From Candidatus Moanibacter sp. (GTDB lineage Bacteria; Verrucomicrobiota; Verrucomicrobiia; Opitutales; UBA2987): a stretch of 64,000 nucleotides of DNA. The DNA is taken from NCBI GenBank assembly GCA_965215885.1, contig CBDCEW010000102.1, forward strand, positions 96,001 to 160,000, written 5' to 3'. The translations under genes and the position numbers were made by a program. Positions 5,257 through 60,243 of this stretch are shown one piece after another (within the stretch, counting starts at the first letter, position 1; every line of letters begins with the position of its first letter). Below the pieces are notes generated by a model, which was not told the origin of the DNA, made no database searches, and saw only the letters and a list, made by a program, of their open reading frames with translations.

Positions 5257-5273
5257 GTCCGACAGATTCCTAG
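5253..5273. repeat. Solo terminal repeat of MITE family B (perfect IS110 target motif on minus strand)
   Basis: CTAAGTCCGACAGATTCCTAG, identical to 60223-60243. Confidence 0.85.
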
Positions 5274-8548: not shown

Positions 8549-8617
8549 CTAGGAGCCTGTCGGACGAGATTTGTCACTTGCACAGAAATCCGAAGACAAA
8601 GTCCGACAGTCTCCTGG
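8549..8617. repeat. Degenerate family-B inverted-repeat element
   Basis: TAGGAGCCTGTCGGAC ... GTCCGACAGTCTCCTG arms. Confidence 0.6.
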
Positions 8618-18535: not shown

Positions 18536-19513
18536 TTGCATAAAGATCAAAAACAAAGTGAACCTTTCGCGGTAGACTTCGAGTCGCTCCAATGTCGACT
18601 CGGGGCTGATCTGTTGGGTCGCCGGATGCGAAAACAGGCCGAGTTATGGGCCCGTCTCGTGCATCAGGGCCAAGGCATCCTTTCCCTTGAGAGATATCTT
18701 CCCATCGACAGGATACTCAATTCGTGCTTACGCGTTTTCGGGTTTTACGAAAGGGGAAACCGGAATTTTCGAGATTTGGGCCTTGTCGAAAATCACGTAT
18801 CACTTGCGAACCTTCCACTCCCCTTCGACGGATATCGCATTCTGCAGATGAGCGATCTCCACCTTGACCTCGATACTTCTCTCACTCCCGCTATTATCGA
18901 AGTTCTAGGCAAAGCCGATTGCGATCTGGCTGTCATAACGGGTGACTTTCGCAATACCACTACGGATTTTCACGGCGAGGCCCTTCGACAGTTGAAAAGA
19001 ATCATGAAGCATCTACCGATGCCGGTTTACGGTGTTCTCGGCAATCACGACTTTATTGAAATGGTCCCGGAACTTGAAGCATTAGGCCTGCGTATACTGC
19101 TGAACGAGAACGTTGTCCTCCAACTAAAGGATTCCACTATTCGCCTGGCCGGAGTCGACGATCCTACTTTCTACGAAACGCACGATTTGAAGGCAGCCGG
19201 CCGTAACAGAGCGAAACGCGAGTTCACCATCCTCCTCTCCCACGGACCGAAGATCTACCGTGATGCCGAAGGAGCGGATATTGATCTCATGCTATGTGGA
19301 CATACGCATGGTGGCCAGATTTGCCTCCCTGGTGGTTGGATTGTCGTCCGCAACGGCGAATGCCCTCTTCGAATGATCTCCGGTGCCTGGAGATACAGGG
19401 AGCTTTCCGGCTACACTTCCCGAGGCACCGGATGCACCGGAATCGCCATCCGGTTCAATTGTCCGCCCGAAATTACCGTGCATGTCCTCCACGCGAAATC
19501 TGTCGGATCCTAG
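18536..19513 (+). CDS. Calcineurin-like metallophosphoesterase
   Basis: SDLH, TGDF, GNHD, LSH, GHTHGGQ, SRGTG, PPEI. Confidence 0.92.
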   Translation: MHKDQKQSEPFAVDFESLQCRLGADLLGRRMRKQAELWARLVHQGQGILSLERYLPIDRILNSCLRVFGFYERGNRNFRDLGLVENHVSLANLPLPFDGYRILQMSDLHLDLDTSLTPAIIEVLGKADCDLAVITGDFRNTTTDFHGEALRQLKRIMKHLPMPVYGVLGNHDFIEMVPELEALGLRILLNENVVLQLKDSTIRLAGVDDPTFYETHDLKAAGRNRAKREFTILLSHGPKIYRDAEGADIDLMLCGHTHGGQICLPGGWIVVRNGECPLRMISGAWRYRELSGYTSRGTGCTGIAIRFNCPPEITVHVLHAKSVGS

Positions 19514-19564
19514 CAGCCTGTCGGACTCTTTTCATCAGGCTGCTAGGAATCTTATAGTAGCTCC

Positions 19565-19856
19565 AGGTTATTCATCCAAGGGGCCGAGTGGAGCCGCAGG
19601 AAAAACTCGGCGAGGCCCCTTTGTGAATAACTTGGCCGATCAGTGGTTGGCGATGGGTCAAAGAGTTTGTTTGGCTAAGGGTGAAAATATTCAAAGGCAG
19701 CCGTCCACTACGAACTTAGGAATCAGTCCGAAGAGGACTTCCGACAGAATTTCGAGTGGACGGCCTGCCTGGATGACCGAAAACGAACACTCAGTTTACA
19801 TCCTCATAACAGGATCCAACTATAAGGACTTCGCCTGGACATCCAGTGCCTTTGAA
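19565..19856 (+). ncRNA. Predicted IS110 bridge RNA
   Basis: Target loop guides TAGGAATC (19717-19724) and TCCGACAG (19740-19747); donor loop guides CTCAGTTTAC (19790-19799) and ACTATAAG (19819-19826); closing stems GCCGTCCACT/AGTGGACGGC, CTGGATG/CATCCAG, TCAAAGGC/GCCTTTGA; ends approximate. Confidence 0.88.
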
Positions 19857-19889
19857 AAAAGCAAAAAGACAAACTAAAGGAACAAAGGG

Positions 19890-49252: not shown

Positions 49253-49385
49253 GTCCACGCACTGCCACTCCCGGCTTGCGGGTATTAGGAAGATGTCGGT
49301 GGTCGAAACCGCGGCAGTGCGGAATCACACCCGGACAGTGGAATCTTTCCGCGAATTCCGAGAACTTGATCCGACAGATTCCTGG

Positions 49386-54367: not shown

Positions 54368-54461
54368 CGGAGAGGGTAAGAATCGAACTTACCTCGACCT
54401 GCGAAACAGACCGACAACGGTTTTGAAGACCGCGGAGGCCACCAGGCACCCTTCACTCTCC
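54368..54461 (-). tRNA. selC: tRNA-Sec(TCA)
   Basis: Anticodon loop CTTCAAA, long variable arm, T loop TTCGATT, G discriminator; adjacent to selD. Confidence 0.95.
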
Positions 54462-59411: not shown

Positions 59412-59460
59412 GGAACGGAGCCTAGGGAAACTTCCCCGTTCCGGTCAACCCGACAGTTTC

Positions 59461-59642
59461 CTAGCCCGGACATTTCACACACTGCGTAGCGAGACGGCGT
59501 AGATCGCTGCGTGTCGATGCCTTTCCGATGCACGGCGGGCGACAGTGTGTTAAGACCCTCTGAGGTCGCCGGGGAAGGGAAGGCATTGACACGCGGTGAG
59601 ATCCGTCGTCGTAGCAGAATATTTGTGAAATGTTCGGGCTAA
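59461..59642. mobile_element. MITE family A, long form
   Basis: TIR CCCGGACATTTCACA / TGTGAAATGTTCGGG, flanked by CTAG/CTAA. Confidence 0.85.
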
Positions 59643-60130
59643 ATATCGCGCCCCTCTGCATCGTCGGGCTCTACGATCCAGATAATTGTGAGGCCCGTCT
59701 CGCTGTCCACGTATACAACCGGCGTTGCGTCGGGAATCTCGGTCTCGACGTATTCCACCCTGGTGATTCCGTATTCGATTTCCTGTTCGTCCGTCCGATT
59801 TGAAATCCAGAAATATACCCCGGTACTAAATACGAGGAGAGCCGCGGCGGCCCCTGACCATACGAGATTCCCTCCGCCCGGAATGGAGGATCGCGTTGAC
59901 GAACGCTCCTCGTCGATGCGTTCGCGAATCTCCGCCCAGGCGCCGGTCGAATCAACATTTTTCGGAACAGGGGAGGCTCTAAGGAGCGAGCCGTATTCTC
60001 GCCACTCTTCGAGTTGCTCCCGACATGCGGCACATTCGGCAAGATGCTCCTGCATCTGCAGTCTGTCGGACTCCGCAATTTCGTCATCCAGCAGTGCACT
60101 TAATTTCTGTTCGGCCTCAGCGCAGTTCAT
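59639..60130 (-). CDS. Zinc-binding (ZAS, zf-HC2) anti-sigma factor
   Basis: LSALLDDEI...HLAECAAC, single TM segment. Confidence 0.9.
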   Translation of the reverse strand: MNCAEAEQKLSALLDDEIAESDRLQMQEHLAECAACREQLEEWREYGSLLRASPVPKNVDSTGAWAEIRERIDEERSSTRSSIPGGGNLVWSGAAAALLVFSTGVYFWISNRTDEQEIEYGITRVEYVETEIPDATPVVYVDSETGLTIIWIVEPDDAEGRDI

Positions 60131-60143
60131 ATTTCCTGAGTCT

Positions 60144-60243
60144 CCAGGAATCTGTCGGTCTCATCTGCGTTGGAATGTCGATCTGCCATAATGACATTTT
60201 CACCACTGGGATGTTAGGATTTCTAAGTCCGACAGATTCCTAG
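60144..60243. mobile_element. Intact family-B MITE (empty IS110 target element)
   Basis: TIR AGGAATCTGTCGGTCT / AGTCCGACAGATTCCT; colinear with 19543-19552 joined to 21255-21345. Confidence 0.9.

Follow-up and report, generated by a model that had tools for sequence, protein, structure and literature searches.

The DNA analysed here, referred to as the window, is a stretch of 64,000 nucleotides from Candidatus Moanibacter sp. The genome carrying the window is designated G000 and its assembly is 90% complete. G006 designates a genome from another genus of the same family, C the contigs of G000 and L the individual loci. The window contains a 1.7-kb element at 19553-21254 which splits a repeat in two and has CT at both junctions. 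An rRNA operon with two tRNAs (27362-32970) and a tRNA-Sec (54369-54461) also lie in the window. G000 is very rich in insertion sequences (IS) and has 151 DDE_Tnp_1 and 29 Y1_Tnp matches. The features of the element and of the repeat copies are given in Table 1.

Table 1. Coordinates of the IS110 element, its predicted bridge RNA and the repeat copies in the window
Feature	Position	Strand	Remarks
Left part of occupied composite	19510-19552		Outer end (CTAG + CAGCCTGTCGGACT variant), short hairpin, inner arm
CT core, left junction	19551-19552	+	Repeated at 21253-21254; 10/10 full copies start and end at CT
Non-coding left end of IS110 element	19553-19889	+	
TATAGT	19553-19558	+	-10 box of predicted circle-junction promoter
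Predicted bridge RNA	19690-19850	+	Two stem-loops (target-binding, donor-binding)
Left target guide TAGGAATC	19717-19724	+	Reads duplication TAG and first 5 bases of repeat end
Right target guide TCCGACAG	19740-19747	+	Pairs with CTGTCGGA; AA next
Left donor guide CAGTTTAC	19792-19799	+	
Right donor guide ACTATAAG	19819-19826	+	Pairs with CTTATAGT
IS110 recombinase, 436 aa	19890-21200	+	Both IS110 Pfam domains
Right end of IS110 element	21201-21254	+	TTGACG at 21232-21237 as -35 box
Right part of occupied 98-bp module	21255-21345		Ends in perfect outer arm (21330-21344, minus strand)
Solo perfect arm, empty target	5258-5273	-	
67-bp two-armed module, same repeat family	8549-8617		
Weak copy, 4 mismatches	22299-22313	+	Within 5' part of ORF 21441-22328
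99-bp two-armed module, same repeat family	49285-49385		
Degenerate solo arm	59449-59464	-	CTAG common to second repeat family
Empty 98/100-bp module	60144-60243		Inner-type arm left (CAGG...GGT), perfect outer-type arm with CTAG right

The recombinase matched PF01548 (DEDD_Tnp_IS110) with 64.5 bits and PF02371 (Transposase_20) with 38 bits, both exceeding the cut-off. The best NCBIfam match was NF033542 (IS110) with 119 bits, under the cut-off of 140, and the structures of IS621 and ISCro4 were matched weakly (E 2e-4 for IS621). Of the catalytic D-E-D-D and serine residues, D17, D111, D114 and S328 are kept in all the 13 sequences aligned, while the second acidic residue (position 70) is Asp in the three closest sequences and Glu in the other ten. 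The element is an IS110 bridge-RNA insertion sequence. The CT...CT arrangement of the ten full copies found in G000 is that of dinucleotide-core insertion, and no duplication extends beyond the core. When the ends are joined as a circle, TTGACG and TATAGT become separated by 17 bp, and a sigma-70-like promoter is predicted at this junction which would be active by analogy with IS621. Promoter scan of the linear element found nothing, as would be expected of a junction promoter. In public contigs, the left junction is supported in three runs (one reaching just 15 bases beyond) and the right junction also in three. The depth of the IS in these contigs is 4-21 times that of the left flank. The joints listed for four sets of public contigs include no circle joint.

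The left end is predicted to encode the bridge RNA. This region folds with -59 kcal/mol (z -5.86) and none of 200 shuffles was as good; the scaffold is conserved in five relatives and the four guides lie in loops of this strongly folding RNA. The target loop spells TAGGAATC/CTGTCGGA, and the two bases AA after the right target guide are predicted to be the handshake bases for the donor TT, as judged from the available text of PMC11208158. CTATAAG of the right donor guide is invariant in the five relatives. At position 7 of the left donor guide, the element's own end has T and an off-target site on contig C84, described below, has A. A contig from an RNA library spans 19606-19839, which is a weak hint as contigs cannot show starts or levels. 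Expression of the bridge RNA and formation of the circle would be expected from the likeness to IS621, which in the available text of PMC11208160 has the same layout of a two-loop left-end RNA with target and donor guides, a CT core and a sigma-70 promoter at the junction.

In the first-pass annotation, the target of the element was proposed to be the terminal repeat of a non-autonomous miniature element (MITE) of 100 bp with an empty copy at 60144-60243. The flanking segments 19543-19552 and 21255-21345 join to 101 bp which align over the whole of this copy, with 84 identities in 98 aligned columns and 5 gap positions. The interior alone scored 72, exceeding the maximum of 28 in 2000 shuffles, and the proposed colinearity is thus confirmed. 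The perfect guide matches (TAGGAATCTGTCGGA) were located on the minus strand at 5258-5272, 21330-21344 and 60228-60242, as had been reported. At three or fewer mismatches, the window has 12 matches to this 15-mer where 1.9 are expected, and none of 100 shuffles reached 12. The degenerate copies reported around 8549, 19511 and 49370 were recovered at 8550 (2 mismatches), 19511 (3) and 49370 (1), but the one reported around 22300 is weaker and falls in a coding region. The occupied site has T for A at position 15, in agreement with the reported mismatch at the outermost right-guide position. The left half of the inner arm at 19510-19552 is the target of the IS (TAGGAAT-CT). Without the IS, the occupied composite is 134 bp long (19510-21345) with the ends CTAG...CTAA, and the IS sits in its inner arm, around 40 bp inward from the outer end. 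The view of the target as a MITE terminal repeat is retained as far as a non-autonomous derivative of a DDE element is concerned, but the window IS occupies an inner arm and not the terminus.

G000 possesses ten full copies of the IS with 99.9-100% identity, along with one partial copy at a contig end and two fragments. Nine of the ten are inserted at the CT of the motif, four in perfect sites, three in sites with C at position 1 and two in sites with T at position 15. The earlier claim that perfect sites are empty is true within the window, but genome-wide four of the nine on-motif copies occupy such sites. The empty sites are 124 perfect and 165 one-mismatch sites. In all nine copies the core is spanned by the 13-mer AGGAATCTGTCGG; this word is present without an insertion 256 times among 743,633 CT sites. 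Only 16 of 289 motif centres fall in ATG ORFs of at least 200 aa, though such ORFs make up 68% of the genome; the proposal of a guide tuned to a multicopy, mostly intergenic repeat is well borne out by these counts. A preference for mismatched sites, such as those with T at position 15, was considered and rejected by Fisher tests, with p = 0.12 when the comparison was made with the position-1 and position-15 variants and 1.0 when it was made with every one-mismatch site. The term safe harbour, used in the first-pass annotation, is a description of the outcome. One of the copies (L046, C104:324316-326019) lies in a solo arm which is flanked by the genes for tRNA-His and tRNA-Arg.

Judged by the base following the core and by the flank read, the arm is of the outer type for seven of the on-target copies and of the inner type for two. 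If the IS and the repeat travelled together as a composite, the common flank would result from duplication and not from repeated targeting. The copies on C59 and C25 are in line with such passive association, as their right flanks are alike in 526 of 528 bases; the left flank of the C59 copy is 77% like that of a copy on C104. As the C59 copy is possibly chimeric in the assembly, it is safer to count eight independent events. The other flanks differ past the arm and come from different modules, some with the outer and some with the inner type of arm; identity is around 68% between the repeat interiors, against 99.9-100% between the IS copies. Passive association is contradicted for eight of the nine on-target copies and is very improbable as a general explanation.

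Among 60 other genomes sampled, the perfect motif and a close relative of the IS (79% amino acid identity) were both found in G006 alone. The left guide of the G006 element is TAGGAGGC, and the left ends of all 23 copies read TAGGAG-N-CT (20 T, 2 G and 1 C), while the right ends have GTCGGA in 21 of 23. The empty sites in G006 comprise 222 TAGGAAT, 198 TAGGAGT and 50 TAGGAGG. TAGGAAT is thus used by none of the 23 copies despite its 222 sites, with p about 4e-7 if the copies are independent; some of them share flanks, so that the counts and this p overstate the number of independent events. Guide and target change together between the elements of G000 and G006, as read from their sequences. 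At position 7, the ratio of 20 T to 2 G fits the availability of sites and not the guide (p = 0.29), and an explanation of this T by handshake pairing is unneeded. Guide positions 2-6 and 8-14 decide the targeting, and positions 1, 7 and 15 are tolerant. In three G006 copies (L039, L050 and L207), the left guide is absent within the expected distance of the left end, and two of these have the same foreign sequence inserted in the left end. Further IS110 relatives with 70% and 59% identity were found, and a metagenome scan gave one relative with 42%. The relatives at L174, L176 and L178 (38-42% identity) possess other guides at the same scaffold positions, each matching its own flanks. Two of these distant relatives, L174 and L176, appear to be directed by their own guides to repeats rich in CTCGT.

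The IS could need the hairpin of the repeat besides the guide match, in which case the folded structure would be the target. Such a stem-loop requirement is reported for ISPpu10 in the available text of bioRxiv 10.64898/2026.03.19.712850, and most of the G006 copies lie in perfect hairpin units of 66-67 bp. Nevertheless, two G000 copies (C96 and C104) and some G006 copies have no second arm in the flank read, and a need for the hairpin is considered unlikely.

In the repeat family, inward-facing arms make units of 37, 66-67, 90 and 98-99 bp, which are connected by linkers into composites measuring around 345 bp or more. Among 571 motif hits, 130 inward-facing pairs of less than 200 bp were found, mostly outside long ORFs, as in terminal inverted repeats of a non-coding, multicopy family. 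Forty 98-bp units showed a median identity of 78%, falling to 68% in the interior. Eighteen of them continue into a linker, ten into a second hairpin and twelve into other sequence, and since 28 of 40 thus run on, the 100-bp unit is probably one module of diverged composites and may not be a whole MITE. The unit at 60144-60243 ends in CCAG/CTAG, which is not a direct repeat. On C105, a 344-bp composite has TTAG at either border, whereas TTAG occurs just once at each of three empty paralogous sites; a 99-bp unit provides a second, weaker case. Of the 50 elements whose two ends are both of the outer type, 19 have CTAG/CTAG, which fits a duplication and an inverted repeat alike, and none of the other 31 has direct repeats. 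The sequences indicate, with one informative insertion, that the repeat inserts with a 4-bp target duplication (YTAG). The left guide would consequently read the TAG of the duplication together with the first bases of the terminal repeat, and the target motif is, on this sequence comparison, made up of the YTAG duplication and the initial bases of a terminal repeat of the IS1182 type.

A second repeat family beginning with TAGCCCGGACATTTCAC was observed at 21363-21435, 59462, 59641, 61854 and 15009 of the window, with 354 hits in the genome at two or fewer mismatches. It often has CTAG in common with the first family and may be a further MITE family that nests in the duplications of the first. 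The tetranucleotide CTAG is rare in G000 (4068 against 41550 GATC). At 60115-60143, beside the empty unit, the start of a zinc-finger gene (59639-60130) is like the repeat linker (AAATGAAC), a likeness which may be due to chance.

The link of the repeat to IS1182 came from other genomes. Scan of species genomes with the repeat end gave at least 114 loci in many phyla. Among the matches listed, 76 loci have the second end in view, and of these 47 measure 167-169 bp and 61 end in CTAG. NF033551 (cut-off 270) was matched with 327 bits by the full-length IS1182 transposase at L112 and with 303 bits by that at L226. Both adjoin an end nearly identical to that of the repeat, their elements beginning or ending in CTAG-GAGTCTGTCGGACT. 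L116 is a frameshifted 1.58-kb element with the same end on both sides. An autonomous IS sharing the terminal repeat, for which a search had been suggested, is thus represented by IS1182 elements L112, L116 and L226 in other genomes, while G000 and G006 hold relics alone; no intact IS1182 with such an end was found in G000, at its 90% completeness, or in G006. In G006, a 99-bp two-armed unit of the repeat family lies around 100 bp past the conserved C-terminal segment of a 3' IS1182 relic. The relic in G000 ends differently, with CTAG-TAGCCTGTTAAAC. Position 6 is G in the IS1182 ends found, but A in most of the G000 arms. The IS1182 family (NF033551) and its MITE derivatives share with the G000 units the terminal CTAG-GA(G/A)TCTGTCGGACT and the YTAG duplication, but in G000 the units are nested into composites that contain inner arms and linkers, and an intact transposase was not found. 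The best reading of these comparisons is that the repeat is an old IS1182-derived MITE family, which in G000 is probably now immobile.

Other partners for the repeat were also considered. A 516-aa transposase between two arms on C102 belongs to an unrelated high-copy IS with its own ends, which is inserted in a composite. This 1.9-kb IS (C102:83424-85343) occurs in more than 100 other places and is often beside TAG. An ORF inside a 99-bp unit on C68 presumably resembles an IS1380 transposase. DUF772 was rejected, as its two hits in G000 lack the exact end and G006 has none. Self-BLAST families with at least three copies in G000 included none with such ends. Search of plasmids with the repeat gave only four short hits at chance level, and Rfam search found only rRNA and tRNA.

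Even with real targeting, the repeat could be a mosaic of the REP/REPIN or BIME type, spread by an HUH (RAYT) transposase or by recombination, and its likeness to IS1182 could be incidental. The fixed unit lengths, the diverged interiors and the mosaics joined at CTAG are compatible with such an origin, as are the 29 Y1_Tnp matches in the genome and the missing intact IS1182 partner. However, at 20 Y1_Tnp loci, one of which stands for nine near-identical top hits, no close copy of the motif occurred within 1.5 kb, with hits at 2-3 mismatches alone, and no RAYT gene flanked by the repeats was found there; a RAYT origin was rejected on this ground. A 4-bp direct duplication was seen, the arm matches the ends of three IS1182 elements, and the two-ended form of around 167 bp is common across phyla. 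A REP-like origin is accordingly held to be improbable and the IS1182-derived MITE family is preferred.

The tenth full copy (L034, C84:54652-56355) lies in the site CAGTTTA-CT-TATGGG, which is unlike the target motif. The expectation that all IS110 copies sit in the motif at CT is thus true for nine of ten copies, and the tenth is elsewhere, though also at CT. Taken formally, it is the copy in unrelated sequence that would speak against the targeting, but the site matches the donor loop and so is not unrelated. It agrees with this loop at 11 of 13 positions, jointly the best among the 743,633 CT sites. The two flanks form one membrane-protein gene, which is colinear across the core with an intact homologue of 53% identity and has a frameshift around 25 bases further on. 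This is the sole copy seen to interrupt a protein-coding gene; a single gene-breaking copy fits the safe-harbour idea, without proving selection. On the sequence of the site, the insertion is probably a natural donor-donor event, represented by a single case. In the available text of PMC11208158 and PMC11208160, IS621 performs donor-donor recombination in vitro and has donor-like off-targets in E. coli. Alternatively, the C84 copy could be a chance off-target or a product of rearrangement. There is one event alone, and the region is present in inverted duplicate on the contig with one copy running off the contig end. The joint best donor-loop match, which includes the A of the guide at position 7, and the rejoining of the flanks into a reading frame colinear with the homologue across the core make this alternative quite unlikely and favor the donor-donor event.

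Taking these results together, it is very probable that a recently expanded IS110 bridge recombinase is aimed by its guide at old IS1182-derived MITE ends across the YTAG duplication. By analogy with IS621, the IS110 element would excise as a circle, and its joined ends would form the TTGACG-17-TATAGT promoter from which the left end would be transcribed as bridge RNA. The target loop matches TAGGAATC-T-GTCGGA and the insertions are at the CT core, as can be read directly from the sequence. The target would be made up of the YTAG duplication and the first 12 bases of the IS1182-derived terminal repeat, and copies in inner arms are used too. The diverged MITE family, for which no intact partner transposase was found, would now offer several hundred intergenic landing sites as a static field, much as REPs do for IS621. 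Rarely, the donor loop would be used on both sides, resulting in landing in a donor-like chromosomal site, with one such event in a gene.

Several known elements show similar habits, as described in the available text of the papers cited. IS621 has 144 of 173 sites in REPs (PMC11208160, PMC11208158) and resembles the present element in its multicopy intergenic target, in a natural target which differs from the guide at one position and in rare donor-like insertions. It differs in the length of the recombinase (328 aa against 436 aa here), and in the present element the right guide reads 8 bases and the target is an IS1182-type end with its duplication, not a REP. IS1383 of the IS110 family inserts into the inverted repeats of IS1384, and IS4321/IS5075 of the IS1111 group insert into the terminal repeats of the Tn21 family (cited in PMC11208160, PMC11187229). 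These are likewise IS110-family elements specific for the terminal inverted repeat of another mobile element, but their hosts are autonomous elements, whereas the hosts here are diverged non-autonomous composites. ISEc21, also of the IS110 family, targets codons of an IS3 transposase, and ISMch6 provides a natural redirection by changed guide bases in a relative of 72% identity (PMC11187229). A target inside another IS family and redirection via guide change are features in common with the present case; the evidence for ISMch6, however, comes from a single copy, while for the shift described here 23 copies could be set against counts of the alternative sites. Multi-copy IS110 elements in intergenic palindromic repeats are also known from Pseudomonas putida (ISPpu9 and ISPpu10), but their targets are REPs and a need for the stem-loop is reported for ISPpu10. 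A partial literature search, without ISfinder or paper supplements, found no IS110 element in MITE or IS1182-type ends, and the word MITE is absent from the available text of PMC13626964 and bioRxiv 10.64898/2026.08.14.744561. Homing of the IS110 family on repeats of other elements is already known, and the target described here is apparently undescribed.

A bolder view, which is regarded as possible but doubtful, is that this IS110 lineage reads a junction existing only after IS1182-type insertion and is a hyperparasite which follows and disables the ends of a multi-phylum transposon family, adjusting one or two bases of its guide to whichever end variant is local, with Asp in place of the catalytic Glu and with an insertion by the donor loop on both sides fixed in the chromosome. 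Independently of this bolder view, with the repeat read as an IS1182 derivative, the fossil ends of one element serve as the landing field of another. The surprise is limited, as the general habit is already known. Two related elements with 33 copies and hundreds of counted empty sites provide a natural data set on the specificity of bridge RNA, in which position 6 of the guide is seen to matter and positions 1, 7 and 15 to be tolerant. The set apparently includes a natural donor-donor insertion, a type of reaction which IS621 shows in assays and which is of concern for bridge editing.
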